Source: Planctomycetota bacterium (lineage in GTDB: Bacteria; Planctomycetota; UBA11346). From it: a stretch of 24,815 nucleotides of DNA. The position numbers and the translations under genes were made by a program. Positions within the stretch are counted from its first letter, which is position 1. Each line of letters begins with the position of its first letter. The notes under the pieces were generated by a model that saw only the letters and a list, made by a program, of their open reading frames with translations, searched no databases and was not told the DNA's origin. The stretch is from NCBI GenBank assembly GCA_038213805.1, contig JBBQSO010000081.1, forward strand, positions 1 through 24,815, given 5' to 3'. Below, piece by piece: positions 3,101 through 24,692 of the stretch.

Positions 3101-3190
3101 GGAGAAAACGCGGCCGGTCGAACCACGCCCGATCTCGCGGATCAGGGCGTAGCGGTCGTTGATGAGCCGAGGCTCCTGGGTCGAGGGCAT
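113..3190 (-). CDS. Hanks-type Ser/Thr protein kinase with C-terminal beta-rich and TPR-like regions (PknD-like architecture)
   Basis: Motifs IGRGSTGRV, VAVK, HRDLKPAN, DWG, GSPAYMSPE and DIYSLG. A TPR-like segment follows (AIDAYRRF...EAHFMLCLAY...DAIFELARL). Start reassigned to the ATG at 3190 (MPSTQEPRLINDRY) because the 179-codon extension in the ORF track crosses intergenic repeats. Confidence 0.92.
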   Translation of the reverse strand: MPSTQEPRLINDRYALIREIGRGSTGRVFSAWDQALEREVAVKVLDPQVAGQAEIALRFAQEIRYTARLQHPGIVAVYEAGTTPDGASCYVMSLARGISLEAHLEKIKAASSSHWRQFALIERLTLFLKLLEVISYAHSQDIVHRDLKPANIMIGNYGELWVLDWGLARSLREERPAPPQALENTFDELFTTPKEIAIQDATVIMGPGQDPAVKGTARTNLTTATPSNHATASHSSGRHARPATTSQIRIDEAKVRAESVRMRAATSNSQAHASSSSTGRLARSTHFGQVLGSPAYMSPEQAKGQAGVADKRADIYSLGVILFELLTLHPPCEMAADELVMTFIKRVQNGERKTLKDWWPDAPQALHVITDWALAVDPQDRYPDCEVFGGELRTLLSQLSASYSEVERQRLAREREGAWLPAGSWDFAASPDLGPFSPDSFAILGDVVGQVQHPEMGGLLLGGNGLQVYPFTGPPAEDVRVRLSVEVVRGAEFWVFLRGVPPGPAYQFRIGAYEGKWLTIARGEGTDLEVLSPEWLTMRPLRGAATTSKERARSHIRELIIEVVGARLVLTLDDEQPLVFQDILVSSHAAPAQMAIATWKSQMVVRKLSVERRRSPLMVPSHAVANELLRQGLHSLAIDAYRRFMTEHAETGEAVEAHFMLCLAYQRAGLNAAAEAEMRHFLSQNLDHPLAQDAIFELARLRAATGGDGLERAVREILSYQESGDYVRSRFCLWLLPQIEEAARLEGLARHVERALDLVKQLIRGSPDELVIMDSFTLVISTSLCAFLNHLYDRNDNERIAVFRESMRRCRGIGFKLALRDPRTHTDDLALARHLMRTNDASETLLYLGRGDDDAFALRDYVRDFFVMLSLGCEEQLLATLGGDDVTPIERLLRAGLWARNSRDELARADLEWCFKLTDLVEVERTSLVLLYAARMGCYGLGYLPWELMVDGLAVTHGGGLEAAPLIMVGGWIAETLGRTGDADSIYRTLIAEGSGVSHPARQGLARMGRDEGTPSVGQPVISAT

Positions 3191-3430
3191 GTGCAGGAGA
3201 GGATACGCGATGGACGGCCAGCAGGCAACCGCAGCGCGGGCAGCCGTCCAAGGCGTGCGCGACACCTCCTCGTGCGCTGTTCCCGACCGGCGACGGCCAT
3301 CCAACCACTTCCCAGCAACCACTCTGCCGTGCAAGTTAGCGGTTGTTTCTGAATGGGTGACGCGTGCCCGAGACACCCATGGAGGGCGGGTGGTGTCATC
3401 ACGCCCAGGCGGGAAGGGTGGGGCAAATGT

Positions 3431-3576
3431 CACAGAGCCGCAGAGCCAGACGCAGAGGGCCGCAGAGGACCCCCATGCTGAACTGGGAAGCCCTGAGGAT
3501 GGCCACCGCCTGCCGCTCCATTGAAGCCATGCTCTTGGCTCTGCTGCCCTCCTGCCTTCCCGCTGCATCTCTGGGG
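3431..3576. repeat. Degenerate CGCAGAG-unit inverted repeat element
   Basis: Left arm cacagagccgcagagccagacgcagagggccgcagagg (3431-3468). Decayed complementary arm ctctgctgccctcctgcc...catctctgggg (about 3539-3576). Same unit as the intact element at 12693-12829. Confidence 0.55.
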
Positions 3577-3692
3577 CAAAGGCCTCCAGTCTCGTCAGGC
3601 TTACCCTGATAGCATGGGTGGTTGGTGCGGCGCCCACTGCGGCGCTCCGCGGTCCGCCGTTGCCTCGACCCATCCCGCCCGAGGATGGCGGA

Positions 3693-6608
3693 ATGAGCGC
3701 CATCCCCCAGTCCGCCTCGTTCACCATGACCGCCCGCCGCGAGGTCCCGGCCCTGGGTGTGACGGTCGAGACCTGGAGCCACCCCTGCGGCGCCGTCCAC
3801 TACCACCTCGCCTGCGCCGACGAGCACCGCGCCTTCGTCATCGGCTTCCGCACCAATCCCGAGGACAGCACCGGCCTGCCGCACATCCTTGAACACACCG
3901 CGCTGTGCGGCAGCCAGCGCTACCCGGTGCGCGACCCATTCTTCCAGATGCTGCGCCGCTCGTTGCAGACCTTCATGAACGCCATGACCTTCCCGGACAT
4001 GACCGCGTATCCCTTCGCCAGCCAGGTGGCCAAGGACTACGACAACCTGCTCGGCGTCTACCTCGACGCGACCTTCCGCCCGCTGCTCGACCCGCTCGAT
4101 TTCGCCCAAGAGGGCCACCGCCTCGAGCCCGTCGCCGGGGCCACGCCACCCAAGCCGGAATGGATGAGAAAAGGGGTGGTCTTCAACGAGATGAAGGGCG
4201 CCATGGACGGCACCAGCGAGCAGGTCAGCAGCGCCACCGCGCGCGCGCTGCTGCCCGACACCTGCTACCGCCACAACTACGGCGGCGAGCCGTCCGATAT
4301 CCCGGCGCTTACCCACCGCGATCTGGTCGCCTTCCATCGCCGCTGCTACCGCCCGGCCAACGCCTGCATCGTCACGTACGGCAACCAGCCGGCGCCGGCC
4401 GTGCACGCGCGCCTTGCGCCCTATCTGACCGGCGACGATGGCGTGGCGCTGCCGCCGCCCGGGCTGCAGCCACGCCTGGCCGCGCCGCAGCAGGTGGTGG
4501 TGCCGGTGCCCTGGGGCGAGGGCCAGGACGAGCTCGACGTCACCAGCGTCGCCTTGACCTGGGCGCAGGACGACACCTCCGACCTCGACGAGGTGCTGAC
4601 CAGTGAGCTGCTCGACCGCTTGCTGCTTGGCCACGCCGGCGCGCCCCTGCGCCTGGCGCTGGAGAACAGCGGCCTGGGCCGCAGCACCGGCGGCAGCGGC
4701 TATGGCGCCAGCTACCGCACCGGACTGTTCACCGCCGAACTCGCCGGCATCGCTCAGGCCGACTACCCCAAGCTGGTGCCGCTGGTGCTCGCGACCCTGG
4801 AGGCGGTGGCGCGCGATGGCGTGCCCGCGGCCGAGCTCGACGCCGCGCTGCACCAGCTCGAACTGGCGCGCCGTGAGATCCATGGCGACCATTATCCCTA
4901 CGGCCTGGAACTATGTTTCCGCCTGCTCGCGCCGTGGAACCACGGCGTCGACCCGCTGCCCTTCCTCGACCAGGCGCCGGCCATCGCGCGCCTCCAGCAG
5001 CGCTCGGCCGCGCCCGGCTTCATCCAGAGCGAGATCCGCCGGCGCTTCCTCGACAACCCGCACCGCGCGCTGTTCAGCGCCCTGCCCGACCGTGGCTTCC
5101 ACGTCCGCCAGCAGGCCGGCGAGGAGGCCCAGGTCGCCGCCGAGGTCGCTGCCCTTGACGATGCGGGCCGGACGCGCGTGCGTACCCAGGCCACCGCGCT
5201 CGCCGTGCGACAGGCGAGCCACGACGATCCCGCCGTGCTGCCCGACCTCGAGCTCAGCGACGTGCCGCGCTCGCGCCGCTGGGCCGAAGGCCGCGACGCC
5301 GGCGCCGGGCTGACCATCTTCACCCCGGGCACCAACGGCATCCTCCATCAGGTCCTCGCCTTCGGTCTGCCGCCGCTGACCGGAGACGATCTCGACCTGC
5401 TGCCGGTGCTGACCCAGACCATCGGCAGCCTCGGCGTCGGGCGCCGCGATTACCCGGAACGCTCAGCGCAGCTCAACGCGCTGTGCGGCGGCCTGTGGGC
5501 GTGGAGCGACATCTCCGGCGACGCCGCCGATCTGACGCGCCTGCACGGCCTGCTCTTCGCCGAGGTCAAGGGCCTCGCCACCAAGCAGGCGGAGTTCGCG
5601 CCGCTGCTCGCCGAGACCCTGCACGAACAGCGCTTCGACGAGCACGACCGCCTGCGCGAACTCGTCGAGCAATCCCTGCAGCGCCTGCAGGACCGCGTCC
5701 AGGGCTCGGGCAACGCCTTCGCCGCGCGCGCCGCCGCGCGTGGCTTTGCGGGCGCCGCCGCGCTCGGCCACCGCACCAGCGGCCTTGGCCGCCTTGCCTG
5801 GCTGAAGAGCCTCGCCGCCACCATCGACGAGGACGCGCCCGGCGCCGACGACGCGCTCGCCGCCCTCGCCGCGCGTCTCCAGGCGCTGCTCGCGCGCCTC
5901 GCCGCGCAGCCCTTCCGCTGCGCGCTGATCGGCGATGCGGCGGCTGCACCCGCGGTCATCGCCGCACTGCGCGCGGCGTGGCCGCAGCCCGCGGGCGGCG
6001 CCATCGCGACCCTGCCGGGTCCAGCCGCGCGCGCGGTCGCGCCGACCGCCTACACCACCGCCACCGCGGTCAATTACAGCGCGCTGGCCTTCGCCACCGT
6101 GCCCCTGGCGCATGGCGACGCGGCGCCGCTCGCGGTCGCCGGCCGGCTGCTGACCAACAACGTGCTGCACCCGCGCATCCGCGAGCAGGGCGGCGCCTAC
6201 GGGGCCAGCGCCAGCTACGCCGGCGGCAACGGCACCTTCGCGCTGACCAGCTACCGCGATCCGCGCCTGGCCGCGACCCTCGCCGACATGCGCGCCGCGC
6301 TCGGCTGGCTGGCCGCCTGCCCGGACGACCCGCGCCTGCTCAAGGAAGCCGTGCTCGGCGTCATCGCCGGTCTCGACAGCCCCGGCAGCCCCGCCGGCGA
6401 GGCGCGCTCGCGCTTCACCGCCGACCTCAAGGGCACCGGCCCGCAGCGCCTCGACGCCTTCCGCGCCGCGATCCTCGCCGTCACCCCCGCCGACGTGCGC
6501 CGCGTGACCGCGGCCTGGCTGCCAACTGACGGCGGTAGTCAGGCCGTGGTCACCAGTCCCGAGACCCTGGCGGCGAGCGGACTGGGTTGGGACGCCGAGG
6601 CGATCTGA
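3693..6608 (+). CDS. Insulinase-family (M16C, presequence protease PreP-like) Zn metallopeptidase
   Basis: Inverted zinc motif HILEH in GLPHILEHTALCGSQRYPVRDPFF, plus FMNAMT, KGVVFNEMKG and C-terminal IREQGGAYG...SYRDP. About 970 aa, ATG at 3693. Confidence 0.95.
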   Translation: MSAIPQSASFTMTARREVPALGVTVETWSHPCGAVHYHLACADEHRAFVIGFRTNPEDSTGLPHILEHTALCGSQRYPVRDPFFQMLRRSLQTFMNAMTFPDMTAYPFASQVAKDYDNLLGVYLDATFRPLLDPLDFAQEGHRLEPVAGATPPKPEWMRKGVVFNEMKGAMDGTSEQVSSATARALLPDTCYRHNYGGEPSDIPALTHRDLVAFHRRCYRPANACIVTYGNQPAPAVHARLAPYLTGDDGVALPPPGLQPRLAAPQQVVVPVPWGEGQDELDVTSVALTWAQDDTSDLDEVLTSELLDRLLLGHAGAPLRLALENSGLGRSTGGSGYGASYRTGLFTAELAGIAQADYPKLVPLVLATLEAVARDGVPAAELDAALHQLELARREIHGDHYPYGLELCFRLLAPWNHGVDPLPFLDQAPAIARLQQRSAAPGFIQSEIRRRFLDNPHRALFSALPDRGFHVRQQAGEEAQVAAEVAALDDAGRTRVRTQATALAVRQASHDDPAVLPDLELSDVPRSRRWAEGRDAGAGLTIFTPGTNGILHQVLAFGLPPLTGDDLDLLPVLTQTIGSLGVGRRDYPERSAQLNALCGGLWAWSDISGDAADLTRLHGLLFAEVKGLATKQAEFAPLLAETLHEQRFDEHDRLRELVEQSLQRLQDRVQGSGNAFAARAAARGFAGAAALGHRTSGLGRLAWLKSLAATIDEDAPGADDALAALAARLQALLARLAAQPFRCALIGDAAAAPAVIAALRAAWPQPAGGAIATLPGPAARAVAPTAYTTATAVNYSALAFATVPLAHGDAAPLAVAGRLLTNNVLHPRIREQGGAYGASASYAGGNGTFALTSYRDPRLAATLADMRAALGWLAACPDDPRLLKEAVLGVIAGLDSPGSPAGEARSRFTADLKGTGPQRLDAFRAAILAVTPADVRRVTAAWLPTDGGSQAVVTSPETLAASGLGWDAEAI

Positions 6609-12630: not shown

Positions 12631-12908
12631 AGCCCAGGGCAAGGCCCTACCCATTAGCCACAAGTCCGCTGGTGCGATGAAGCCTGAAGGCAACCGCAGA
12701 GTCGCAGAGCGCCGCAGAGGGCCGCAGAGGGTCTTTGCCCGTGCTCTACAGAAGGGCTGGTGAGAGCGGCACTCATGGGCAATCCAGTTCTTCTCTGCGG
12801 CCCTCGGCGGCCCTCTGCGTCTCTGCAGTGAGGTAGGCCCTGCGGTGACCGGCGATTCGGTAGTCTGCGTCGACTTGTGGGTAGTGCGTAGGGCTCACGC
12901 CCTGGGCT
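12631..12908. repeat. Nested inverted repeats (REP-like outer arms enclosing a CGCAGAG-unit inverted element)
   Basis: Outer arms 12631-12666 and 12872-12908. Inner arms 12693-12729 and 12793-12829 (33/37 complementary). Innermost ttgcccgtg / catgggcaa. Confidence 0.85.
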
Positions 12909-13082
12909 AGGTTCTGTCGCCTGCTCCGCAGGCTCGTTCGAGCTGATGCAAAGGTGTTTCCCGCTGATTGATGGTCACGTTCCGCGGGTCACTGCCAGAG
13001 GTTCTGTCGCCCGCTCCGCAGGCTCGTTTGAGGCGATGCGCGGGTTTTTTCCGCTCATTCACGATCACGTTCCGCGGGTCAC
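12909..13082. repeat. Two 84-bp direct repeats with a 90-bp period
   Basis: 12909-12992 and 12999-13082, about 71/84 identical by manual alignment. Each contains a gcc(t/c)gctccgcaggc mini-palindrome. Confidence 0.9.
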
Positions 13083-13315
13083 CTCCAGTTGCCGTCACCG
13101 TCAGTCGCCATTGGAGGCGGTTGCTGGGAGTGCACTTGTCGTGGCTGACCATGGCGATGAGTCCTCTGGGGCAGTCTTGTCTCTATCTCCCTCATTCCCA
13201 CGCCGGGATTCGAACCGCGTAGCGGGTACGCCGCCCCGGCGTAGGCCGCCACCTGCGTGGCGGCCGGCCCGCGGAGCCCGGCCGAAGTCCCCGCAGCGCA
13301 GCGAGGAGTCGAGGC

Positions 13316-13358
13316 CGGGGGGTTCGACCCCTCCTGTCCGCCATCCCCCTCCCCGGCC
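13316..13358 (+). repeat. Inverted duplicate of the tRNA-Ser 3' end plus trailer
   Basis: 13333-13358 is the exact 26-nt reverse complement of 13395-13420. Complementarity continues imperfectly through GGGGGTTCGA. Confidence 0.9.
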
Positions 13359-13409
13359 CCCCTGCGCACCAACGAAAATCCCCGACCATTGCGCGGCCGG
13401 GGAGGGGGA

Positions 13410-13499
13410 TGGCGGACAGGGGGGGATTCGAACCCCCGAACGAGTTTCCCCGTTGCGCGCTTTCCAAGCGCGTGCCTTCAGCCGCTCAGCCACCTGTCC
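13410..13499 (-). tRNA. tRNA-Ser (anticodon GGA), CCA encoded
   Basis: GGACAGG/CCTGTCC acceptor stem, cgcgc-TT GGA AA-gcgcg anticodon arm, long variable arm (aacggg gaaa ctcgtt), GGTTCGAATCC T-arm, GCCA end. Confidence 0.97.
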
Positions 13500-13523
13500 A
13501 GGTCACATGCGGGAAGCGCCGGG

Positions 13524-13551
13524 ACTATGGCCTGGGTGGGGTGGAGGTCAA
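13524..13551 (-). promoter_or_regulatory. Putative sigma70-type promoter of tRNA-Ser
   Basis: TTGACC-16 nt-CATAGT on the minus strand, about 25 nt upstream of the tRNA. Confidence 0.55.
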
Positions 13552-13882
13552 GGCGGGTCGCATGCAAAAAGGGCATTGGGACACGGTTAGGGAAGATGAG
13601 GTCGGCACACTTCCTGACCAAGTGGGATCCGGCAGTTTAGGCCATTTGCGGGCGGGCCGCCCGCGGTCCCAGGGGAGAGACATGAAACCCAGGAAGCGCC
13701 AACGACCTGTCCGGCGGGGTCCAGGGGCGGCAGCCACCTGGCGGGCGTAGCGGGCGGAGCCCGCGAGATGCGGCCTCCCGAGCGAATCAGCGAGCGAGCG
13801 GAGGCCAGGCGCGGGGACTGCGCAGCAGGCCCACCGCGGCGCAGCCGCGGTCGCCCGGGGCCGATCGCGGCGCAGCCGCGAC

Positions 13883-13928
13883 CCGCGCCAGCGGGTGAGC
13901 CGCGCCAGCGGGTGAGCCGCGCCAGCGG
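13883..13928. repeat. 17-bp tandem repeat, about 2.7 copies
   Basis: ccgcgccagcgggtgag twice plus ccgcgccagcgg. Preceded by two copies of the palindrome cgcggcgcagccgcg. Confidence 0.85.
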
Positions 13929-13954
13929 CGAATCGGACCCGGGCGCGAGCGCCG

Positions 13955-15196
13955 TCAGTTGTTTTGGTAGTACGTATTCGGGAGAAGGTAGTCATTGAAC
14001 ACCCCTGGGTCCTGATCCCCCGGCTGCGGCGTCACCCCATCCCCGAACACCGGATCGTGCGCGCACGTGGCGAAGCGCTTGACCCGGTTCTGCAGATCGC
14101 GCCATTCCTTCGAGCCGTAGGCGATGAAGCGGTGGATGTCCGCCTCAAGTTCGGCGAGCTCCTCCTGCGAGTGCTGGAAGAAGCGCTTGAGGTCCTCGAC
14201 CAGGAAGTTGCCGAGCGCGATGTTCGAACGCCACCAGCGCTTGGTCTCTTCGTCGAGCGGGCGCACCTCGCGCTCATAGACCTTGAAGAAGCGCTCGACC
14301 TCGAGCATCAGCTTGGGGATATCGGCGAGCTGGGCCTCCTTGTAGCGGCGGATGTCGGCGACCAGCGCCATGCGCTCCGGCGTGGCGTGGACGCGCCAGC
14401 GGTTGAGGTCGGCCTTCATCTTGACGAACTCGCGCTCGCGCCACTGGGTGAAGCGCCACAGATCATCGACCAGTCGCGGCACGGTGGCCTTTTCATAGCT
14501 CCAGAAGTTCTTGAAGTCGATGACCAGCCGCTCGCCCTCGACGGTGGCGTGCAGGCGGAAGCGCTCGATGTCCTCGGTCAGCTTCTGCCATTCGAGCTCG
14601 CTGGCGGCGAAGAAGTCGCGGCCGTCGATGATCAGCTTCTTGTACTCACGGTTGCGCCATTCCAGGAAGGTGATGACGTCGACCTGCAGGTTGGCGGATT
14701 CCCAGCGCACATGTTCGTAGAAGCGGCGCAGGTCGTCACCCAGCGGCGCGACCTCGCGCGCCTGGTATTCGACGAAGATCGCAATGTCCATCACCAGGTT
14801 CTTCCACTCGACGTCGGCCTTGGCGAAGAACTCAAGGATGTCGTCCTTGGCCCTGGGGAAGTTTTGGATGTTGTAGCCGTAATAGCGCGCCACGTCATTG
14901 GTGAGCTTCTCGATCTGCTCCCACTCGGTGGTGATCAGATAGGCATACTCTTCGCGCATGTACCACCACTCGCGGCGGCGCCATTCCAGGAAGCGCGCGG
15001 TGTCGAGCGGCAGGTTCTCGGCCTGGATGGCGTTGGAGCGGATGAAGCGATCGATGGCGATGACCATCTCCTGCTGCTCACGGTTGGCGTGCGCGACGAA
15101 GCGGTGCACGTCATCGACGGTGGCGTCGCGCTCGCGGCAGCAGCCCGCCAGGGCCGCGACGACGATCATGAGCACGAACGGGACCCACCTACGCAT
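13955..15196 (-). CDS. Putative lipoprotein composed of 20 tandem 18-residue helical repeats, function unknown
   Basis: Signal peptide MRRWVPFVLMIVVAA-LAGC (lipobox) and strong coding bias. Residues 26-385 parse into exactly 20 x 18 aa with consensus L-x-x-D-h-x-R-F-x6-E. Confidence 0.88.
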   Translation of the reverse strand: MRRWVPFVLMIVVAALAGCCRERDATVDDVHRFVAHANREQQEMVIAIDRFIRSNAIQAENLPLDTARFLEWRRREWWYMREEYAYLITTEWEQIEKLTNDVARYYGYNIQNFPRAKDDILEFFAKADVEWKNLVMDIAIFVEYQAREVAPLGDDLRRFYEHVRWESANLQVDVITFLEWRNREYKKLIIDGRDFFAASELEWQKLTEDIERFRLHATVEGERLVIDFKNFWSYEKATVPRLVDDLWRFTQWREREFVKMKADLNRWRVHATPERMALVADIRRYKEAQLADIPKLMLEVERFFKVYEREVRPLDEETKRWWRSNIALGNFLVEDLKRFFQHSQEELAELEADIHRFIAYGSKEWRDLQNRVKRFATCAHDPVFGDGVTPQPGDQDPGVFNDYLLPNTYYQNN

Positions 15197-15337
15197 CGGC
15201 GCAGCCTAGACCCCCCTCAGGAGGGCCACAATCCATGCACCCGGTGGGGGGGTCCCGTGTGTCATCCTCGGCCATTCCCCAGGTCCCGTGTTCAGGCGGC
15301 TTTAGAGCGCACCTGCAGCAGGCCGTGCCCGGTCCCG

Positions 15338-15365
15338 TTGACACCTCACGCAGCGCACCCATGAT
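15338..15365 (+). promoter_or_regulatory. Putative sigma70-type promoter of the SRP RNA
   Basis: TTGACA (15338-15343)-16 nt-CATGAT (15360-15365), 7 nt upstream of the RNA 5' stem. Confidence 0.7.
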
Positions 15366-15372
15366 CCGCCCC

Positions 15373-15473
15373 GCACAGCCGGAACTTGGGAGTCGAGTGC
15401 CGCCGAATCTGGTCAGGCCTTGACGGGAGCAGCCATAAGGCATGCACCGGCGTCCCAGGCACTCTGGCTGTGC
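15373..15473 (+). ncRNA. ffs: Signal recognition particle RNA (small bacterial 4.5S type)
   Basis: One long hairpin closed by GCACAGCC/GGCTGTGC, with the domain IV motif UGGUCAGG-CCU-UGAC-GGG-AGCAGCCA. It has its own promoter and a T8 tail. Confidence 0.9.
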
Positions 15474-15482
15474 ATTTTTTTT
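15461..15482 (+). terminator. T-tract ending the SRP RNA transcript
   Basis: The 3' strand of the RNA closing stem is followed by A and T8 (15475-15482). Confidence 0.55.
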
Positions 15483-15497
15483 GAGAGGTCCGAAGTC

Positions 15498-15681
15498 CGG
15501 AAGTCCGGAAGTCTTGGTGGACGGGGCGGAATGGTTGCCCGAATGACGAAATCGCACCCATCCAAGCTTAGCGGCTGTCCTCCACCGTCCTCCGCGCCTC
15601 CATCCCTCCTGTTCTATCCGGCTGTCGAGCGACCACGTCGCATCTGACCGTTCCCGGAGTCACCAGACTTCCGGACTTCCG
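15498..15681. repeat. Inverted-repeat element with CGGAAGTC octamer arms
   Basis: cggaagtccggaagtcttggtg (15498-15519) versus caccagacttccggacttccg (15661-15681), complementary with one indel. Confidence 0.8.
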
Positions 15682-15691
15682 CACCCGGGAC

Positions 15692-16879
15692 TCACTCGAC
15701 CACGCGCAGCACAAACCCCTTGAGGTACTCCGTCTCCGGCACTGCCGGTAGCACCGGATGGTCGGGGCTGGCGCCCAGCACCGCCTCGAGGCGCAGGCTG
15801 CGTCCGGCGTCGGCGGCCGCCTCGACCACCATCTCGAGGAAGGCCGGCCCGGAGACGTGGTGCGAGCAGCTGAAGGTCGCCAGCACGCCGCCCGGTCCGA
15901 GCATGCGCAGGGCGCGCAGGTGGATCTCCTTGTAGCCGCGCAGCGCGCCGGCCACCGCCACCTTGGTGCGGGTGAACGACGGCGGGTCCAGCACCACCAC
16001 CTGGAAGCGCTCGCCGGCCTCGTCCGCGGCGCGTAGCCAATCGAAGGCATTGCCAAGGTGGGTCTCGAGGCGGTCGGCGCAACCCGCCCACTCCGCCGCC
16101 TGGTGCGCCCCGTCAATAGCGTCCGCGGCGCTGTCGAGAGCCACCACCCGGCCAGCGCCGGCGGCCAGCGCGTGCAGGCCGAAGCCGCCGAGGTGGCAGA
16201 AGGCGTCGAGCACGCGGTCGCCGGGGCGCACGAAGCGCGCGACCGCGGCCCAGTTCTCCTGCTGGTCGAGGTAGACTCCGGTCTTGTGCGCGTCGAGCGG
16301 ATTCCATGGGAACTCCACCGCGCCGACGCGCATGCGCGCCGCGGCCGGCGGCGGCCCGCGCAGCACGCCGCGGCGCTGCGGCAGGCCTTCCAGAGCGCGC
16401 ACCGGCAGGTCGTCGCGTTCCAGGATGGTTGTGGGCGCCAGCAGCTCGACGAGCAGGTCGGTGAGCAGCGGCAGGCGCGCGTCCATGCCCGCGCTGGTCG
16501 CCTGCACGCTGAGCACGTCGCCATACTGGTCGACGATCAGGCCGGGCAGCAGGTCGGCCTCGCTGCTCACCAGGCGGCGCGCCGGCCGCCCGGGCAGCAC
16601 CGCCTCACGGTGGGCGATGGCGCGGACCAGGCGCGCGCGAAAGAACGCCGCATCGATCGCGACGGGCACCCGGCTGAGCACGCGCACGGTGATCTTCGAG
16701 CGGCTGTTGTAGAAGCCGATGGCGAGCGGATGCCCGTCCTCATCGCGCACCTCGACCACGTCGCCGTCCGCAGGCGTCCCGTGCACGCGGTGGATCTCGC
16801 TGCCATATACCCACTGGTGCCCACGAAACAGCCGGTGCGGCACGGAGCGGAGCAGGGTGACGACGGGCAGGGTGTCCAT
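15692..16879 (-). CDS. Class I SAM-dependent rRNA methyltransferase, RlmI/RlmK-like with PUA domain
   Basis: GHQWVYGSEI PUA start, SEADLLPGLIVDQY, HKTGVYLDQ, VLDAFCHLGGF, VVLDPPSF, TFSCS and PETEYLKG. Confidence 0.92.
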   Translation of the reverse strand: MDTLPVVTLLRSVPHRLFRGHQWVYGSEIHRVHGTPADGDVVEVRDEDGHPLAIGFYNSRSKITVRVLSRVPVAIDAAFFRARLVRAIAHREAVLPGRPARRLVSSEADLLPGLIVDQYGDVLSVQATSAGMDARLPLLTDLLVELLAPTTILERDDLPVRALEGLPQRRGVLRGPPPAAARMRVGAVEFPWNPLDAHKTGVYLDQQENWAAVARFVRPGDRVLDAFCHLGGFGLHALAAGAGRVVALDSAADAIDGAHQAAEWAGCADRLETHLGNAFDWLRAADEAGERFQVVVLDPPSFTRTKVAVAGALRGYKEIHLRALRMLGPGGVLATFSCSHHVSGPAFLEMVVEAAADAGRSLRLEAVLGASPDHPVLPAVPETEYLKGFVLRVVE

Positions 16880-16972: not shown

Positions 16973-19249
16973 CTACTTTGCGCGGGTCTTTGCCGCGAGC
17001 TGCGTCACTAGATCGGCGCGCGCATGCTGGATGGCGGGCGTGATGATCGCCGCATCGCTGGGGATCTCGGCCAGCACGGCCTTGGCACGCTCGAGGTCAC
17101 CGGCTTCCATGGCCGAGCGGGCGACGGCCAGGCCCTTCCCCCAGGCGTTCTCGACTCCCGCCAGAAAGGTGCGCGCCTGGCCGAGCGGCACGGCGAGGTC
17201 GGGGTAGGCGGCGGCGCCATCGATCGCCAGCAGCAGGTCGGCACAGCGCGTGTCGGTGACGGCGGCCTTCAAGCGCACCCAGGCGGAATCCTGCGCGACG
17301 CGCAGCGCGGCGAGGTTGCGCACCATGTCCTTGTAGCCCTGGGTGTCCGCCGGGATCGAAGACAACACCGCCTCGGCCAGGCCGGGCTGCTTGCGGCGCA
17401 GCGCCTGGCGGAATTCAGCGACCGCGTCGAGCGGCTTGAGCGCCGGCCCGAGCGGCTTGTCGACCGGCTGGGCCGAAACCAGCTGCGGCGCCTTGGGCAA
17501 GACCACCACCGGCACCGCGGAGGGCGGCGGCGTGGGTGGGAGTGCCGGCGGCGGCGTGGGCACCGAGGCTGCGGCCACGACCGGGGGTGACACAATCGGC
17601 TCCGCAGCGATCGGAGGCCCAGCCGGAGTGACCGGCGTGGGGGTCGGGGGTGGGGGCGTGGCCGCGACCGGCGGAAGTGGTGGCGAAATCACGGCCACTA
17701 CCGGCGGAACGGGGACCGGGGCCGCAGGCGAATCTGGCTGGACAGGGACGGGACCCGCCGGCACCACGGGCGCAGCCGCGGGAGAGGTAGCAACCGTCTC
17801 AGGCGCTGACGCTGGCAAAAGTACGGCTGGAGCAGGCACGGGGGCACCCGTGGGCGCAGCCGTGGACGTGGGCACCGCCGCCGTCGACGACGCCAGCGGC
17901 TGCGGCTGCGGCTGCGGCTGCGGCTGCGGCTGCGGCTGCGGCTGCGGCTGCGGCTGCGGCTGCGGGACAGGCACCAGGTCCGCGGCTGCCACCGCCCCGC
18001 CCGCCGGCGCGGCGGGCTGCCGGCGCGCGATCACCACCGCGACCACACCGATCATGGCCCCGATCAGGATCACCAGGATCAGACCGACAGGGGCCCGCTT
18101 CGGCGCCGGTTGGGCGTCCGCCAACGCGCCCGCGCCACTGGTGCCGACCATGGTCGCCGCCAGCGCCGTCGACGGCGGCACAGCGATGGTCGCCGCCGCA
18201 GCGCGCTGCGCCTGGCTCGCGGCTGGCACCACGGTCTTGGCAGTCATGTCGACGACGCTCGCAACCGCCGCCGCTCCGACCGTGTTGCGCGTCGCCGAGG
18301 TCGCGCCCGGATCCGCCGGCGAGCCGGTCGAGACCAGGGTGGCGATGGTGGTGTGGTCGGCGCCGGTGCCGTGCGCGTGTCCGACCAGCTCCGGCACGGC
18401 ATGCGGCACGTGCAGGCCCTGGCCGACCAGCGCGATCAGTTCATTGGCGAGCTGCTGCGCCGAGGCCGGGCGGTCGTCGGGATGCTTCGCCAGGCAGCGC
18501 CGCACCAGCGCGGCGATCGGCTCGGGCACGGCCGGATTGATCATGGCGATGTCGGGCACCGGCTCGTCGAGATGGGCGCGCAACATCGCCATGGTGTTCT
18601 CGGCCTTGAACGGAGTGCGTCCGGCGAGCATGTGGAACCAGGTCGCGCCCAGGCTGTAGAGGTCGCCGCGGAAGTCGGTGGGCTCGCCACGGCAGGCCTC
18701 CGGCGGCATGTAGGACGGGGTCCCGAGCAGGGTCCCGCCCATGGTCATGGAGGTCGAGTCGACCGCTTTCGCCAGGCCGAAGTCGGTGAGCTTGGCCACC
18801 CCCTTCTTGGTCATCATGATGTTGTCGGGCTTGATGTCGCGGTGCACCACGCCCTGCTCGGCGGCCGCGGCCAGACCCTCGGCGGCCTGTAATGCGACGC
18901 TCGAGGCCAACCGCCAGTCGAGCGGTCCGGTCATGTACTTCTTCAGGCTCGCGCCGCCCTCGACCAGCTCCATCACCAGCAGGTAGTGCTCGTTGGCGTT
19001 GGCGTCCGCGTACTGGCCGAACTCGTAGACCCCGACCACGTTCGGCGCCTGGATACGGGCGATGCACTGCGCCTCGCGTTCAAAGCGGGCGACGTTGTCC
19101 GCGTCGCCCGCAAGGTGCTCGGCGATGCGCTTGACCGCCACCGGGCGCTTGAGCGAGACCTGGGTCGCCAGGTAGACCTCGCCCATCGCTCCGCGGCCGA
19201 GCAGTCCTTCGATGAGCAAACCGCCGATACGCGTACCATTCGGGATCAT
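16973..19249 (-). CDS. Transmembrane Hanks-type Ser/Thr kinase with Pro-rich extracytoplasmic linker
   Basis: LGRGAMGEV, VAVK, HRDIKPDN, DFG, GTPSYMPPE. Transmembrane segment VGLILVILIGAMIGVVAVVIA, then a Pro/Ala-rich linker and a helical C-terminal domain. ATG 19249 follows GGAG (alternative GTG 19255). Confidence 0.93.
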   Translation of the reverse strand: MIPNGTRIGGLLIEGLLGRGAMGEVYLATQVSLKRPVAVKRIAEHLAGDADNVARFEREAQCIARIQAPNVVGVYEFGQYADANANEHYLLVMELVEGGASLKKYMTGPLDWRLASSVALQAAEGLAAAAEQGVVHRDIKPDNIMMTKKGVAKLTDFGLAKAVDSTSMTMGGTLLGTPSYMPPEACRGEPTDFRGDLYSLGATWFHMLAGRTPFKAENTMAMLRAHLDEPVPDIAMINPAVPEPIAALVRRCLAKHPDDRPASAQQLANELIALVGQGLHVPHAVPELVGHAHGTGADHTTIATLVSTGSPADPGATSATRNTVGAAAVASVVDMTAKTVVPAASQAQRAAAATIAVPPSTALAATMVGTSGAGALADAQPAPKRAPVGLILVILIGAMIGVVAVVIARRQPAAPAGGAVAAADLVPVPQPQPQPQPQPQPQPQPQPQPQPLASSTAAVPTSTAAPTGAPVPAPAVLLPASAPETVATSPAAAPVVPAGPVPVQPDSPAAPVPVPPVVAVISPPLPPVAATPPPPTPTPVTPAGPPIAAEPIVSPPVVAAASVPTPPPALPPTPPPSAVPVVVLPKAPQLVSAQPVDKPLGPALKPLDAVAEFRQALRRKQPGLAEAVLSSIPADTQGYKDMVRNLAALRVAQDSAWVRLKAAVTDTRCADLLLAIDGAAAYPDLAVPLGQARTFLAGVENAWGKGLAVARSAMEAGDLERAKAVLAEIPSDAAIITPAIQHARADLVTQLAAKTRAK
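17898..17963. repeat. Perfect hexamer microsatellite (GGCTGC)11 encoding (QP)11
   Basis: 11 identical units in frame within the kinase linker. Confidence 0.95.
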
Positions 19250-19915
19250 ATCCACTCCGCTGCCGGGACACTTTTCATCCAGGACGGCAAATGCAACGCC
19301 GCCCGTCCATGCAGTGGGGAAACCCCTTGCCCCGCCCGTCCGACGCTTCCGCCCTCTGGTAGACTGGAGGAGTCCCAGCGCGACCCAGCCCGCTGCCGGG
19401 TGCCGTCGTCCTCAGGGACGAACTGGATGCGCCGCAGCGCCGCAGCGCTCCGCCACTCAGCGTCATGCACGCATCCGCAAAGCCCTGCGGACGCATCCCG
19501 CCACCCCCGTGCGCAGGACGTGTCGATCCAGGATTGGAACGACAGGCAACCGCCGGCAGGACCGCCGTTGCCCGGCAAGTGGCATTCATCGACATGCTCG
19601 CGATCGCGATCGCAGCCTCAGCGGATGCGCCATTTTCCCCTGTTCGTGCGAGGTTTTTTTCACGGGAGGAACATGCGGACCCGCATCGTGCGCCGTACGG
19701 GGTTTTCCGCGTCATCCGCTGTCCGGTTCGCTGCGGAACCGCCATCCTGGTGAATGCCGTCAGGCGCTGGCCTCCCGCATTCGCGATATGCACGCGCGGG
19801 CCACGCATCGGCAGGTCGCTGTTAACGAGCAGCTCGGGCCGGCGATCTGCTTAAGCCGCATTTCGCGAACAGCGTATCCGCCAGAGCCCTGCGCCCCTCC
19901 CGGAATCCTCCGCCC

Positions 19916-22120
19916 ATGCCCGCACCGCGCCGCGCCGCCTTCACGCTCTTCGAGGTCGCGATCTCACTGATCATCGTCGCGTTCGGCGTGGTCAGCATCA
20001 TGGCGCTGATCCCGGTCGGACTGAAACAGCTTACCGCGCAGCGCTTCCGCATCTACGCGGCATGCGTCGCGAACCAGCTGATCGACGTCTACGCCAACGC
20101 CGACGCCAGCGCGGTGATGATCGACCACGAGGGCCCCGACCCGTGGGACGTCCCCATCGACCGCAAGGTCAACGCTCCCGATCTCGAGGCCAAGCTCGCC
20201 AATCCGCGCTACGGCATGCTGCCGCTGCCGACCGAACTCGCGCGCCGCCTTGACAGCGACGGGGATGAGCTCCAGCGCCTGCTCGACGACGGTGGCTACG
20301 TCTACTACGCGCAGCCCAACGTCGCGAACTCATGGCGCGAGGACCTGCTGCCGGTCGAACCGCCCAATGATCTGCAGAAGATGATCGTCGGCGTGGTCGG
20401 CGCCGCCCAGCACAACGCCTCGTACGCCTTCCCGATGAAGCGCTGGCCCTATTACGCCACCGTCCCCGGTCCGCCCCTGCACGCCATACACGTGCGTGGC
20501 TCCGGCTGGGACGCGGCCAATCCCAACGCGTCCACCGCGCCGGACACGCGCCGCGACGAGGACGGCGCCATGCCGACGGTGTGGAAGGAGAGCAAGTCGA
20601 CCTACTGCTGGGCCGCCTGCGTCGATCCCGATCCGCGGCTCAAAATGGTATTCGACACTTTCTGGGACTATCTGCAGATCCGCGACTTTCCGGAGAAGCA
20701 GAGCGTCGAGTACCGGACCAAGCTCGGCGCGTACATCCTCGCCACCGTCGCCTACGCGCAGTCCACCGGCCTGACCGGCGCGGACCTGGCCGCGGCGATG
20801 GCCGCCGACGCCACCACCGGGGTCGCTGCGCAGCTCGCGGCGCTCACCCCCTACCCCTACGCCAGCACTGCGCCGGGAACGGCGGCGCGCAAGGTGCTCG
20901 CACTTTCCTACCTGTCCAACGCGCTGATGTGCCTGACGCGCTGGCACAAGTACGACGCCGTCACCAGCACCGACGCCGGCGACCGCGACCCGCTGAATGG
21001 TGGCGTCGACCTGCAGGCCAACTACGGCATCACGCCGACCCTGCCGATGCCGCGCATTACCCACAACGGCCTGACCAACCTGGTGCGCAACACGCGCTAC
21101 TGGTACTTCCGCTACTGCGCCGAAAATCCCTACGACTGGGCGGTGCCGCGGCCGATCGAGCACGCCTGCATGATGGATTATCCGCTGCTCGAACTGGACC
21201 TCTTCCGTGAGCCGGCCAGTGGCAGCATCTGGGGCCTGTCCGCCGGCATCGCCAATGCGCTGCGCCCCGGCAGCCAGGCGTTGCAGTGGCGGTACCTGTC
21301 GCCCACGCCGGTCACCACGGTCGATGGCGGCCCGGCACAACCCTTCGGACCGAGCCTGACCTACCCGCTTACGACGTATCCGGGCGCGGACGACGGCAAT
21401 GCGCCGTTCGCCGAGAACGGGCCGCGCAGCGGTGAGGTTTCCCACTTCACCCTGTGCAACCGCTTTGACGCCAGCGAGCGCTGCCGCCAGCTGGTGTTCT
21501 GGGTGGTCGACTGGCAGTCCTACGAGGACTGCGAGACCGCGCCCAGCGCGGCGGTCGACGCCAGCCGCTACCCCAAAGCCGCGCCGGGCGGATTGAAGCC
21601 GGACAACGCCGGGGTCGATGGCCGTGCGTGGAGCACGTCCGTCGCACCCACCACCGGCTTCGATGATCTCATGTGGGGCTTCACCGACGGCTGGGGCGAC
21701 GTCACCGGTCTCGAACAGGCGATCAACGCCGCCGGCAGCGACAACATCCAGCTGCACCGCGCGCTGATCGGCAGCTATCTGCACGCCTACCGCAACCCCG
21801 AGAAGAACCTGGTCTTCACCAGGCCGCTCGACGACCAGCCCACCGGCACCGACGTCACCGCTTTCAAGGTCCACGACAATCCGCCCGGCTACCGGCCGTT
21901 CACCGATCGCATGCTGATGAACAACCCGCCGGACTTCGGGCCGCCCGGCGTCGGCGGCGCCGTCCAGGCACCGCAGATCTTCACCGGCCGCTTCGGGGCC
22001 GACCGTAACGGCAACAACCGTCTCGACCGCGGCGTACTGCCGCGCACCGCGCGCCTGCGCGCCGTCACCGTGGCCCGCTTCAACTACTACGACATGCGTG
22101 TCCCATGCCAGATCAAATGA
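19916..22120 (+). CDS. Large prepilin-type N-terminal cleavage/methylation protein (PilV/GspI-like N-terminus, 734 aa)
   Basis: RRAA|FTLFEVAISLIIVAFGVVSIMALIPVGL class III signal with Glu5. Confidence 0.85.
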   Translation: MPAPRRAAFTLFEVAISLIIVAFGVVSIMALIPVGLKQLTAQRFRIYAACVANQLIDVYANADASAVMIDHEGPDPWDVPIDRKVNAPDLEAKLANPRYGMLPLPTELARRLDSDGDELQRLLDDGGYVYYAQPNVANSWREDLLPVEPPNDLQKMIVGVVGAAQHNASYAFPMKRWPYYATVPGPPLHAIHVRGSGWDAANPNASTAPDTRRDEDGAMPTVWKESKSTYCWAACVDPDPRLKMVFDTFWDYLQIRDFPEKQSVEYRTKLGAYILATVAYAQSTGLTGADLAAAMAADATTGVAAQLAALTPYPYASTAPGTAARKVLALSYLSNALMCLTRWHKYDAVTSTDAGDRDPLNGGVDLQANYGITPTLPMPRITHNGLTNLVRNTRYWYFRYCAENPYDWAVPRPIEHACMMDYPLLELDLFREPASGSIWGLSAGIANALRPGSQALQWRYLSPTPVTTVDGGPAQPFGPSLTYPLTTYPGADDGNAPFAENGPRSGEVSHFTLCNRFDASERCRQLVFWVVDWQSYEDCETAPSAAVDASRYPKAAPGGLKPDNAGVDGRAWSTSVAPTTGFDDLMWGFTDGWGDVTGLEQAINAAGSDNIQLHRALIGSYLHAYRNPEKNLVFTRPLDDQPTGTDVTAFKVHDNPPGYRPFTDRMLMNNPPDFGPPGVGGAVQAPQIFTGRFGADRNGNNRLDRGVLPRTARLRAVTVARFNYYDMRVPCQIK

Positions 22121-23565
22121 GCCGCCGCGACCCGCGCCACGGCGCCTTCACGCTCATCGAGCTGATCATCGCCATCGCGCTCGGGCTGGTGATCATGGGC
22201 GTGGCGGTCTCGGGATTCCGCGTGCTGGTCTCGTCGCTGACCGTCACCCAGCGCATCGCGCGCACCAACGACCTGCTCGCCACCGCCGCGCTCGCGGCTT
22301 TCGATGAGGCCGATTTCTGGGACAGCTACGATGACCGCGGCGGCGACGCCAGCGGCCGTCGTTTGCGCGGATCGCTCGCGCTGCCGGTGCCCAACCGCGA
22401 TGGCAGCACCGTCACCCTCGGCCTGCCGTTCGCGCCGCTCAGCCGCAGCGTCGGTGGCGACGCCGCGACCTGGCCCGCGGGCGACAGCCGCAGCTGGGGC
22501 TACGGGTGGCAGGACGACGAGCGCTTGTGGGCGACCAGCGCCGACAACGAACTGACCTGGTATCCCGGCATCATCTGCGAGAGCATGGAAACGGACTGCC
22601 GCTTCGGCCACTACTCCATCCTCGGCCTCAGCCATCTGCCTGGCGAGAGCTCTTTGCCGATCGACGGCGGCACCAGCCCGCTGGTCGGCGGCTGGCAGCC
22701 GCGCAACGGCGGCGGCCTGTACGGCACCCTGACCTTTCCGAGCGAGACCACGCCACCCCGCCCGGGGGCCGCCACCGCCGCCTACCGCCACGCCACACCC
22801 GGCTGGTACTACAACCAGTTCCACGGCCTGACCAACGCGCTGGGCTGGTATGGCATGCAGGACTACCTGCCGGCGAACGCCATCCTCAGCTACGCGACGA
22901 AATACCAGCCGATGGTCCGCGCCACCAGCGACGCATGGCAGGACAGTCCCGCCGACAGCACCGACGCCGCCGGCCGGCCGATCTACCTGATCAAGACCTT
23001 CGCGCGCGCCAACGCCGCCTGGCAGTTCGGCGACAAGCCCTTCTTCGTGCTGCAGTCCTACAGCGTCAACTGGATGCCGCACGCCATGGACTTCCTCACC
23101 TCGTACACTGCCTTCGGCCTGACCCCGCCGCGCGGCAACCTCTACGAAGGTGGCACCGGCACCACGCTCACCACCGCCCAGCTCGCCTACTTCAACCGCA
23201 ATATCGTGCGCATGGAGTCCGACGACATGCCACTGGGCGACTGGGGAGGCAACGACAGTACCGATTTCGCCGAACCCGCCTACCCCGGGGCGGCGGACGC
23301 CTACGGCGCCACGGTGTTCAACTCCTATGTGCTGCGCACCACCTCGGCCAGCAAGCTGATGACCCTCAAACCGAGCAGCTGGCCCGATGTTTCCGTGGCA
23401 GTGGCGCGCTACCTGCGCCTGACGCGCTTCTCGACCCAGTTCAAGATCTCGTGGACGGATCCGCTCTCGGGTGAGCGCGCCGACCTGCGCTTCACCGCGA
23501 TGGGGACGACCCTGCGCGGCGCGCGGCGCATGCGCGATCTCGACCTGCCGGCGGCCGCGCCATGA
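22117..23565 (+). CDS. Prepilin-type protein (PilW/GspJ-like N-terminus, 482 aa)
   Basis: RHGA|FTLIELIIAIALGLVIMGVAVSGF. ATGA overlap with the upstream stop. Confidence 0.88.
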   Translation: MSRRDPRHGAFTLIELIIAIALGLVIMGVAVSGFRVLVSSLTVTQRIARTNDLLATAALAAFDEADFWDSYDDRGGDASGRRLRGSLALPVPNRDGSTVTLGLPFAPLSRSVGGDAATWPAGDSRSWGYGWQDDERLWATSADNELTWYPGIICESMETDCRFGHYSILGLSHLPGESSLPIDGGTSPLVGGWQPRNGGGLYGTLTFPSETTPPRPGAATAAYRHATPGWYYNQFHGLTNALGWYGMQDYLPANAILSYATKYQPMVRATSDAWQDSPADSTDAAGRPIYLIKTFARANAAWQFGDKPFFVLQSYSVNWMPHAMDFLTSYTAFGLTPPRGNLYEGGTGTTLTTAQLAYFNRNIVRMESDDMPLGDWGGNDSTDFAEPAYPGAADAYGATVFNSYVLRTTSASKLMTLKPSSWPDVSVAVARYLRLTRFSTQFKISWTDPLSGERADLRFTAMGTTLRGARRMRDLDLPAAAP

Positions 23566-24692
23566 GCGCGGCTCCGCTCCAGCGCAGCGCGGCGCGCCAT
23601 GGCACCGTGCTCATCGTGGTGGCCGGCATCACCGCGTTGATGGCGAGCATGGGCCTGGCCTTCATGTTGCGCATCCGCGAGGGCGCGGAGACCTCCGACC
23701 TGCTCATACGCGAGGCGCAGGCGCGCATCATGCTGCACGCGGCCTGCGCCTACATCCTCGAGGCCTCGCGCCTGGGCTACGGTCCCGACCGCTTGTCCGC
23801 GACCGCCGCGGCCGGAGTGTCCACCGTCGGCTTCGTCAGCACCGGCAGCGGCGCGCTGGCTGTGCGCGAGGGTTTCGGCTGGATCGATGTGCGCGACTCC
23901 GACGGCACCAGCTTCGGCGCGGGCGCCACCGCCTACGGCCCGCGCGACCAGTCCGGCCGCGCGGTGTGGAGCGGCGGCGGCGTGTGGCCGGACGTCGGCG
24001 GCACGGTGATCTGCCCGATGTACCGCTGGACGCGGCCGCCAGAAGCCCTGCGCCAGACCGTCGCTTACAACCCGATCATGAGCGGCCTCAGCGACAACGG
24101 CGACCCGCGCTGGGGTCGCCCGCTTTTGCTCAATCCCGACCCCCAGCCGGCGGTTGCCAACGGCTGGCCGAATACCGTCACGGCGACGCGCTGGGGCGAC
24201 TTCGTTGGCGGCGACGCGACCCCGGTGACCAACTCCGCCGGCGTCTCGTGGTTCCGCGTCCACCGTGTCAGCGCCGCGACTTTCATCGTCACCTGCGGCG
24301 CCGGCGGCACGCTTGGCTTCAAGGACTGGGCCGAGGTCCTCGCCCACCCCGGCCTGACCGGCGTCGCCGGCGGAACGGAGCTTTTTTCAGGCGACCAGGC
24401 GACCTTCGACACCCTGCAGGCCAACGAGAGCCGCCTGTGGTACGAGGTGCGTTGGTCCGGCGCGGTGCGCCCCCTCGACTTCCGCCACGAGGAGCCGACC
24501 TGGTGGCGCTGGCTGCAGAACTCCTTCGCCTACCGCATCTACCCGGTCAACAGTTCGCAATATCCCGGCTGGGGCCGCACCAACCGCTTCAATCCCAACC
24601 CGGTCGGTACGATCAGCTACATCCAGCGCCTGGAGAGCATCGGCAGCAATCCCATCGATGCGCAGACGCGAACGCAGATTACGGCGTGGTGA
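23562..24692 (+). CDS. PilX/GspK-like prepilin-type protein (376 aa)
   Basis: RHG|TVLIVVAGITALMASMGLAF lacks Glu5, as is typical of PilX/GspK. It continues ...EAQARIMLHAA. ATGA overlap with the upstream stop. Confidence 0.8.
   Translation: MSAAPLQRSAARHGTVLIVVAGITALMASMGLAFMLRIREGAETSDLLIREAQARIMLHAACAYILEASRLGYGPDRLSATAAAGVSTVGFVSTGSGALAVREGFGWIDVRDSDGTSFGAGATAYGPRDQSGRAVWSGGGVWPDVGGTVICPMYRWTRPPEALRQTVAYNPIMSGLSDNGDPRWGRPLLLNPDPQPAVANGWPNTVTATRWGDFVGGDATPVTNSAGVSWFRVHRVSAATFIVTCGAGGTLGFKDWAEVLAHPGLTGVAGGTELFSGDQATFDTLQANESRLWYEVRWSGAVRPLDFRHEEPTWWRWLQNSFAYRIYPVNSSQYPGWGRTNRFNPNPVGTISYIQRLESIGSNPIDAQTRTQITAW

Follow-up and report, generated by a model that had tools for sequence, protein, structure and literature searches.

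Several described kinds of protein are built from long, periodic helices. The exchangeable apolipoproteins, of the ApoA-I type and apolipophorin III, consist of tandem amphipathic helices that are partly punctuated by prolines, and the classic ApoA-I mimetic peptide is an 18-mer. In a class A helix, basic residues sit at the polar/apolar interface and the apolar face is uninterrupted. Lpp, as portrayed in parts of two papers, has a role in envelope spacing (PMC8824477, PMC5736177). For some phage tape-measure proteins, a section of one paper describes aromatic residues that recur every 18 residues at a constant place in the repeat (PMC5099701). Finally, excerpts of a report on designed proteins associate an 18-residue (five-turn) repeat with straight, non-supercoiled antiparallel bundles (bioRxiv 10.1101/2024.10.07.617055). 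Here we describe a natural protein with an 18-residue repeat, a lipoprotein encoded at 13955..15196 on the minus strand of a 24,815-nucleotide (nt) contig from Planctomycetota bacterium (JBBQSO010000081.1, assembly GCA_038213805.1). We refer to this whole stretch of DNA as the window. An earlier note, made from the letters of the window alone, had drawn attention to the gene.

The gene, with its stop codon at 13955-13957, encodes a lipoprotein precursor of 413 amino acids (aa). Its ATG lies three codons past an in-frame stop, so the start is unambiguous. The protein begins with MRRWVPFVLMIVVAALAG, followed by Cys19 in a canonical LAGC lipobox. Its N-terminal layout, MRR / WVPFVLMIVVAA / LAGC, is that of a bacterial lipoprotein (a signal peptidase II substrate), and LAGC fits the lipobox pattern [LVI][ASTVI][GAS]C. 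Read directly from the sequence, the signal peptide covers residues 1-18 (15143..15196, minus strand), with an MRR n-region, a hydrophobic core and the lipobox residues LAG, and the conserved Cys19 (15140..15142, minus strand) is the predicted lipidated N-terminus of the mature protein. The lipobox cysteine was kept in 33/33 rows of family alignment A2 and in 62 of the 66 rows of alignment A3, the other four of which begin after it. The earlier claim that this is a lipoprotein therefore held in every row that reaches the N-terminus. The G+C content of the gene is 0.63, compared with about 0.70. The deficit arises at codon positions 1 and 2 (G+C at position 2, 0.35), and G+C at position 3 (0.89) equals that of the neighboring genes.

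Beyond the lipobox, residues 26-385 (14042..15121, minus strand) divide without a gap into 20 units of 18 residues. This is exactly the division proposed in the earlier note, and the five position counts reported there were also obtained again: L or M at position 1 (18/20), D or E at position 4 (18/20), R at position 7 (14/20), F, Y or W at position 8 (19/20) and E at position 15 (13/20). The array consensus is L1 x x D4 [IVL]5 x R7 F8 h9 x [WYH]11 x x R14 E15 [WFYV]16 x x. Prolines fall mostly at unit boundaries, as had been noticed before, with six of the eight in the array at unit positions 17, 18 or 2. Autocorrelation (BLOSUM62, 500 shuffles) gave z scores of 11.1, 11.4, 11.8 and 11.4 at lags of 18, 36, 54 and 72 residues, and z did not exceed 1.9 at any other lag between 1 and 79. 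The periodicity noted earlier lies well outside what chance would give. Identity between units averages just 3.85 of 18 residues, and Tandem Repeats Finder detected no DNA-level tandem repeat in the gene. We conclude that the repeat is old and has been preserved as protein sequence, which agrees with the old, diverged register suggested earlier. The pattern is degenerate in units 4 and 17, and unit 20 fits it in its first half only before entering the C-terminal tail. No clear super-unit of 36 or 54 residues was found in the single sequence. Unit profiles resemble each other most when they are 10 units apart (P 0.0065 for this lag by itself, 0.078 corrected for 14 lags), a weak hint that the array may descend from an ancient 10+10 unit duplication.

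We then looked for relatives. Searches of Pfam (E <= 10), NCBIfam and PHROGs returned nothing above noise for the lipoprotein, the best PHROGs row being one family of unknown function (E 0.0069 over 48 aa), and the ESM Atlas held no usable match. A profile search of the PDB gave a designed four-helix bundle (E 0.0066) and ApoLp-III (E 0.45), both of which we dismissed as compositional. The author of the earlier note had not recognized a family, and neither these libraries, the PDB and the ESM Atlas nor the structural comparison described below supplied one. We likewise found no account of the family, or of its linkage to the ffs gene (see below), in the full-text literature that we searched. 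A word-indexed search of 5.8 billion proteins yielded 24 relatives, which aligned colinearly, and an exhaustive phmmer scan of 1.84 billion representatives yielded 54 at E <= 0.001, each as one colinear stretch. A profile search contributed one extra member, P0072. Full-length members have 405-453 aa, the others being fragments, and the sole annotation found among them is "hypothetical protein." An 18-residue period was present in all eight homologues tested, two distant ones included (z 6.4-9.9).

Across 185,579 species genomes we located the gene at 36 loci, 35 of them titled Planctomycetota and one titled "bacterium"; one locus encodes a protein 98% identical to that of the window. The Brocadiaceae or Kuenenia labels attached to six loci are doubtful in view of the G+C content of these loci (0.61-0.73) and that typical of those taxa. 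Two further lipoproteins, P0068 and P0070 (383 and 387 aa), are 23-26% identical to the family and are themselves periodic at 18 residues (z 7-8). P0068 aligned to the family profile with an hhalign probability of 97.7% and gaps of about one unit, and a word-index search seeded with P0068 gave back P0068 alone. These two proteins suggest a second, very rare branch, and with it a wider but rare superfamily. We conclude that uncultured Planctomycetota possess a genuine lipoprotein family, not named before, to which the window protein belongs.

The conserved positions of the unit form a single face of a helix. Family-wide, unit positions 1, 5, 8, 9 and 16 are hydrophobic in 80-94% of cases, and on a helical wheel they lie at 0, 40, 340, 80 and 60 degrees. 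The conserved D4, E15, W/Y/H11, R7 and R14 lie at 300, 320, 280, 240 and 220 degrees, such that conserved residues span the arc from 220 to 60 degrees and the opposite face (100-200 degrees) is variable. At exactly 100 degrees, the hydrophobic moment stays coherent across 352 residues (z 9.7), the phase of the stripe is near constant (about 36-76 degrees) in 17 of the 20 units, and the fifth harmonic (period 3.6) dominates. The straight hydrophobic stripe predicted in the earlier note is thus present, with the in-phase 3.6-residue apolar periodicity expected of a non-supercoiled 18/5 bundle or coiled coil. The middle of the apolar arc, at 20 degrees, is occupied by position 12, where just 28% of cells are hydrophobic and where the invariant Arg73 and Arg181 are found, and the acidic D4 and E15 flank the apolar face. 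Hydrophobic moments of single units are moderate (0.16-0.62), and 0/20 units lie above the Eisenberg surface-seeking line. Aromatic residues (F+W+Y) make up 14.5% of the protein, and Trp (4.3%) and Arg (11.4%) are both enriched. A polar layer buried at intervals of 27 Angstrom, with acidic flanks, would fit helix-helix packing better than insertion into lipid. The designed 18-residue bundles, as far as the excerpts describe them, share their repeat arithmetic with the window protein, which has a stripe in phase over 352 residues. They are artificial and short, whereas the window protein is natural, has 20 units, loops, a lipid anchor and a polar seam center, and would form a bundle only by our reading.

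To see how the array varies, we compared 32 full-length homologues with 32-62% identity. Indels of 18 residues or multiples thereof were found in 0/32, and the number of units is fixed at 20. The idea of a ruler that changes length in 18-residue steps, put forward earlier, finds no support in this comparison. Shorter indels, of 1-4 residues, occur within residues 26-376 in 22 of the 32 homologues and would put a continuous stripe out of phase; register-breaking indels were among the findings that the earlier note itself listed as refuting its proposal. The short indels cluster near residues 55-59, 199-239, 252-268 and 340, with another cluster just beyond the array at 377-382. Because a one-residue indel would rotate the stripe of a continuous helix by 100 degrees, these sites are best read as helix breaks. 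Seven residues, R73, P114, L134, D137, E143, R181 and E364, are invariant in the 66 family rows. Such unit-specific invariant residues argue for one fixed three-dimensional structure and not for an extensible ruler or a generic amphipathic coat.

A likeness to phage tape-measure proteins, with their 11- or 18-residue aromatic periodicity, had also been suggested. The 18-residue aromatic spacing, as given in the section cited above, is the only shared feature. The window protein has no meaningful PHROGs match and its model no match in BFVD at E <= 0.001, its gene lacks phage neighbors, it has a lipobox, and its unit number is fixed. Sequence, fold and context thus give the comparison no further support.

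Three conserved interruptions stand out in the array. The first is a non-helical loop, YGYNIQNFPR (residues 106-115; 14852..14881, minus strand), evident from both conservation and structure prediction, in which P114 is invariant and G107, Y108 and N112 are nearly invariant across the 66 rows. The second is a VPRL break (residues 239-242; 14471..14482, minus strand), within a segment, 221-251, that was modeled at low confidence (predicted local distance difference test score [pLDDT] < 50); P240 and L242 are nearly invariant, and homologues repeatedly carry one-residue insertions at 231-239. The third is a turn, VRPLD (residues 311-315; 14252..14266, minus strand), which is both conserved and a helix break in the models described next, and around which R309, E310, P313 and L314 are nearly invariant.

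We ran AlphaFold2 with 20 and with 66 aligned sequences. Both models were all-helical, as the earlier note had claimed, with some 10-11 helices, the longest of up to 106 residues. Mean pLDDT rose from 66 with 20 rows to 70 with 66 rows, and the predicted template modeling score (pTM) rose from 0.26 to 0.28. The 66-row model has breaks at 61-63, 106-116, 221-243, 311-315 and 329-332; in the 20-row model a break at 235-246 replaces that at 221-243. Both models are non-helical at 106-116, with their top pLDDT on either side, and both break at 311-315 between flanks with a pLDDT of 88-93. Around these two loops (residues 81-150 and 271-350), pLDDT in the 66-row model peaks at 81-92 and 82-93, and the 20-row model behaves much alike. 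We infer that loops 106-116 and 311-315 may be hairpin tips. The tail after residue 377 is predicted to be disordered (pLDDT < 50). A Foldseek search at E <= 0.001 with both models against the PDB, and with the second also against BFVD, gave 0 matches; the best rows, which were not significant, were filamentous helical proteins.

The C-terminal tail itself (residues 379-413; 13958..14062, minus strand; pLDDT < 50) is rich in Pro and Gly and carries the family motif DPxFGD..P..G....VF.D. Residues G385 and P390 are nearly invariant across the family rows. The C-terminus, ...YYQNN, is not conserved and has no C-terminal Lys.

Three cysteines occur in the window protein. Besides the lipobox Cys19, these are Cys20 (15137..15139, minus strand) and Cys378 at the array end (14063..14065, minus strand), and covariation leads us to propose the latter two as disulfide partners. 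Sixty-four of the 66 family rows could be scored (four rows are duplicates, leaving 62 distinct). A second N-terminal cysteine and a cysteine at 377/378 were both present in 27 rows and both absent in 37, and one alone occurred in 0. In an unbiased scan of all residue pairs in the 66 rows, by mutual information with average product correction (MI-APC), 20-378 was the top pair. On a maximum-likelihood tree built from core columns only, the two traits each changed 7 times, always together. In two members, P0037 and L026, the N-terminal partner follows the lipobox cysteine by 21 residues and still stands directly before the array, which indicates that the second N-terminal cysteine tracks the start of the domain and not the lipid anchor. 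Given this covariation, the array's two ends probably come together, a disulfide being the simplest means. Such a bond would tie the beginning of the 20-unit array to its end. The pair would then imply that the chain folds back in an even number of passes; a closed ring or an intermolecular link appears less likely.

The reading that we favor, and hold tentatively, is a lipid-anchored, periplasm-facing bundle of straight helices that folds back on itself and serves as a rigid scaffold or brace. The protein would be exported, anchored by lipid at its N-terminus and all-alpha, and its 20 in-phase five-turn units would give straight, untwisted helices able to pack alongside one another. Three conserved loops (106-115, about 235-243 and 311-315) would divide the array into roughly four long helical segments. 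These segments would fold back antiparallel, probably as two hairpins with the YGYNIQNFPR and VRPLD loops at their tips, and bring the first and last array residues together near the membrane, at a junction that the Cys20-Cys378 disulfide would staple in about 40% of the family. What we infer is thus a rod-like, rigid bundle, roughly 10-15 nm long, hanging from the membrane into the periplasm, with the disordered, motif-bearing tail at its base near the membrane; the disulfide, the number of passes and the bundle length all belong to this proposal. By analogy, its role may be structural, to scaffold or brace the cell envelope, and the protein could be abundant, since its gene lies between ffs and a tRNA gene.

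Several observations weigh against such a bundle. Only 3 independent cysteine changes fall on well-supported branches, giving a sign test p of 0.25, and with so few changes the test is unable to reach significance. Beyond the cysteine pair, covariation in the 66 rows is not above chance: the pair-of-pair MI-APC patterns expected of antiparallel or parallel helices do not exceed random (P 0.09-0.5), and the best diagonal segments reach a z of about 3.9 among some 12,000 segments. The hairpin topology is therefore unsupported by coevolution. The disulfide could be intermolecular. The four segments would be unequal, at about 85, 104, 67 and 61 residues, and the global confidence of both AlphaFold2 models is low (pTM 0.26 and 0.28).

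Unlikely, but to be taken seriously, is an extended strut or tether resembling Lpp, with the helices end to end, kinked at the loops and possibly assembled into a homo-oligomeric 18/5 coiled coil. It would measure tens of nanometers and set or span a periplasmic distance, and the cysteine pair would make intermolecular head-to-tail or antiparallel links. Lpp shares with the window protein an N-terminal lipid anchor that is followed almost immediately by a periodic helical domain, and a stand-alone gene; conservation of length could matter for envelope spacing, the role given to Lpp in those parts of its literature. The stripe in phase across 352 residues (z 9.7), the AlphaFold2 helices of up to 106 residues with no confident compact packing, and the filamentous helical proteins among the top, non-significant Foldseek rows would all suit a strut. 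Unit number and array length are strictly kept over 32-62% identity, as expected if length matters, but a fixed length is equally expected of any fixed fold. The indels of 1-4 residues in 22/32 homologues would interrupt a continuous stripe, and the non-helical loops are conserved. These indels, the conserved Gly/Pro/Asn loops and the Cys20-Cys378 covariation also speak against the single continuous helix of about 54 nm envisaged in the earlier note. That the array ends appear to meet argues against a simple one-way strut like Lpp; the cysteine pair is explained most simply by a bond within one chain, and in an antiparallel dimer the lipid anchors would lie at opposite ends. The window protein differs from Lpp, moreover, in having no Pfam or NCBIfam match and a period of 18 residues instead of a heptad (z 1.14 at lag 7). 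Lpp is far shorter than the mature window protein of about 395 residues. Ending in ...YYQNN, the window protein also lacks the C-terminal Lys of Lpp and any known wall-attachment feature.

The conserved polar face could serve a different end. Conserved residues reach well past the apolar seam (220-320 degrees), and a polar-aromatic stripe of D4, E15, W/Y/H11, R7 and R14, repeated every 27 Angstrom, might bind a periodic polymer, either a glycan strand or another repeat protein, with the DPxFGD motif of the tail docking a second partner. The enrichment of Trp (4.3%) and Arg (11.4%) would suit such a platform, as would a tail motif conserved in spite of disorder. We think it quite improbable: the loci have no conserved adjacent partner gene, the stripe could equally be a salt-bridge ladder between helices, and Pfam, NCBIfam and the PDB profile search revealed no similarity to known binding repeats. 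We give still less credence to an amphipathic belt on or around lipid, the apolipoprotein-like arrangement suggested earlier, in which Cys20-Cys378 would close a ring of about 17 nm like a circularized nanodisc scaffold. Twenty amphipathic units with six of eight prolines near unit boundaries recall the exchangeable apolipoproteins, and the lipid anchor, the meeting of the array ends, the high aromatic content (14.5% F+W+Y) and the lack of a confident intramolecular core in AlphaFold2 are also compatible with a belt. The 11- and 22-residue periods of apolipoproteins are absent, however (z 1.85 and -0.8), no Pfam apolipoprotein matched, and ApoLp-III reached only E 0.45 in the PDB profile search. 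The charge layout is opposite to that of a class A helix, with acidic D4 and E15 at the interface, Arg73 and Arg181 invariant in mid-apolar arc and the central position 12 non-hydrophobic in 72% of cells. The moments of 0.16-0.62 are moderate, and not one of the 20 units passes the Eisenberg line. Many unit-specific invariant residues in orthologous units suggest specific tertiary contacts. Of the earlier suggestions, the belt is thus weakened, and the ring is compatible with the cysteine pair.

We next examined the genomic context of the gene. Among the 36 loci there is no conserved protein-coding neighbor. An RlmI-like methyltransferase was considered as a partner and rejected, being upstream in just 10/36 loci, all close relatives. 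The neighbors in the window encode kinases, a peptidase, an ABC transporter and a methyltransferase, and no phage genes are present. What is retained is the company of RNA genes. A probable signal recognition particle (SRP) RNA gene, ffs, lies at 15377..15472 on the plus strand, divergent from the lipoprotein gene and 180 nt from its ATG. It matched Rfam RF00169 over the full model with 37.9 bits (E 9e-6), just below the gathering score of 40, which six related loci pass. With an nhmmer profile, ffs was found 107-369 nt upstream in 32 of the 36 loci, in divergent orientation in 29; one of the four loci without a match has only 326 nt of flank. The pairing is retained at 35-98% protein identity and at G+C contents of 0.43-0.73. 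This linkage is no evidence of a functional tie to SRP.

On the other side, the lipoprotein gene is followed, 455 nt downstream and in the same orientation, by a tRNA-Ser(GGA) gene (13410..13499, minus strand). This tRNA gene is found 72-434 nt downstream in 17/36 loci, on the same strand in 16, and eight of the loci without a match have less than 320 nt of downstream flank. The sole minus-strand terminator-like site in 13300-15800 is at 13403-13379. Since this site lies past the tRNA gene, co-transcription of the lipoprotein and tRNA genes is possible. The context of ffs and tRNA genes hints at constitutive, perhaps strong, expression.

A sigma-70-like promoter, TTGACA-16-CATGAT, was found at 15338-15365, 12 nt upstream of ffs. 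In the gap between ffs and the ATG (15197-15376, minus strand), two short boxes are kept in 12/12 aligned sequences (the window and 11 loci, alignment A4). These are ACACAC (within ATGACACACG), about 75-80 nt upstream of the lipoprotein ATG, and TCTA (within TCTAGGCTG), about 10-14 nt upstream of it. They are candidate promoter or 5' untranslated region elements, with a spacing unlike that of sigma-70 promoters.

The region around the tRNA gene is rich in repeats. An inverted repeat at 13328-13358 and 13395-13425, with 31-nt arms that are 97% complementary and a 36-nt loop, overlaps the 3' end of tRNA-Ser and causes spurious sub-threshold Rfam microRNA matches on both strands. We regard this repeat as a possible terminator or recombination-site remnant. 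A 90-nt direct repeat, in two tandem copies with 83% identity, lies at 12909-13088 between a TIM-barrel gene and the tRNA gene, and beside it, at 12693-12829, are inverted repeats rich in the motif CCGCAGAG. The 23 nt at 13205-13227 are 78% identical to the T-arm region of tRNA-Ser, 218 nt away, a match that may reflect a tRNA fragment or just the T-arm consensus that tRNAs share. Elsewhere in the window, two large genes on the minus strand encode Ser/Thr protein kinases of 1204 aa (113-3727) and 760 aa (16973-19255). An open reading frame on the plus strand (22105-23565) has a prepilin-type N-terminal methylation motif and may be pseudopilin-like; those beside it, at 19916-22120 and 23562-24692, have no Pfam match.

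An alpha-helical repeat lipoprotein is in itself a known kind of protein. New here are the exact architecture of 20 units of 18 residues, the terminal cysteines that covary and the linkage to ffs. To our knowledge, natural proteins with a long, exact 18-residue repeat (3.6 residues per turn) are rare, and most known examples of the geometry are designed, non-supercoiled bundles. Here it occurs in nature over 360 residues, in a family whose unit count does not vary, whose units keep invariant residues of their own and whose proposed terminal disulfide can be tested. The family should be useful as a model for straight-helix packing and for the evolution of repeat proteins. If the protein instead formed a disulfide-closed, lipid-anchored belt ring of about 54 nm in circumference, or a fixed-length periplasmic strut of 18/5 straight-helix geometry, for either of which we see a slim chance, it would be a new element of envelope architecture in an uncultured clade of Planctomycetota, genomically locked to the SRP RNA gene. 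For the Planctomycetota, whose cell-envelope organization is still debated, the family is a clade-specific and apparently stand-alone envelope lipoprotein, the immediate value of which is structural and evolutionary rather than mechanistic.

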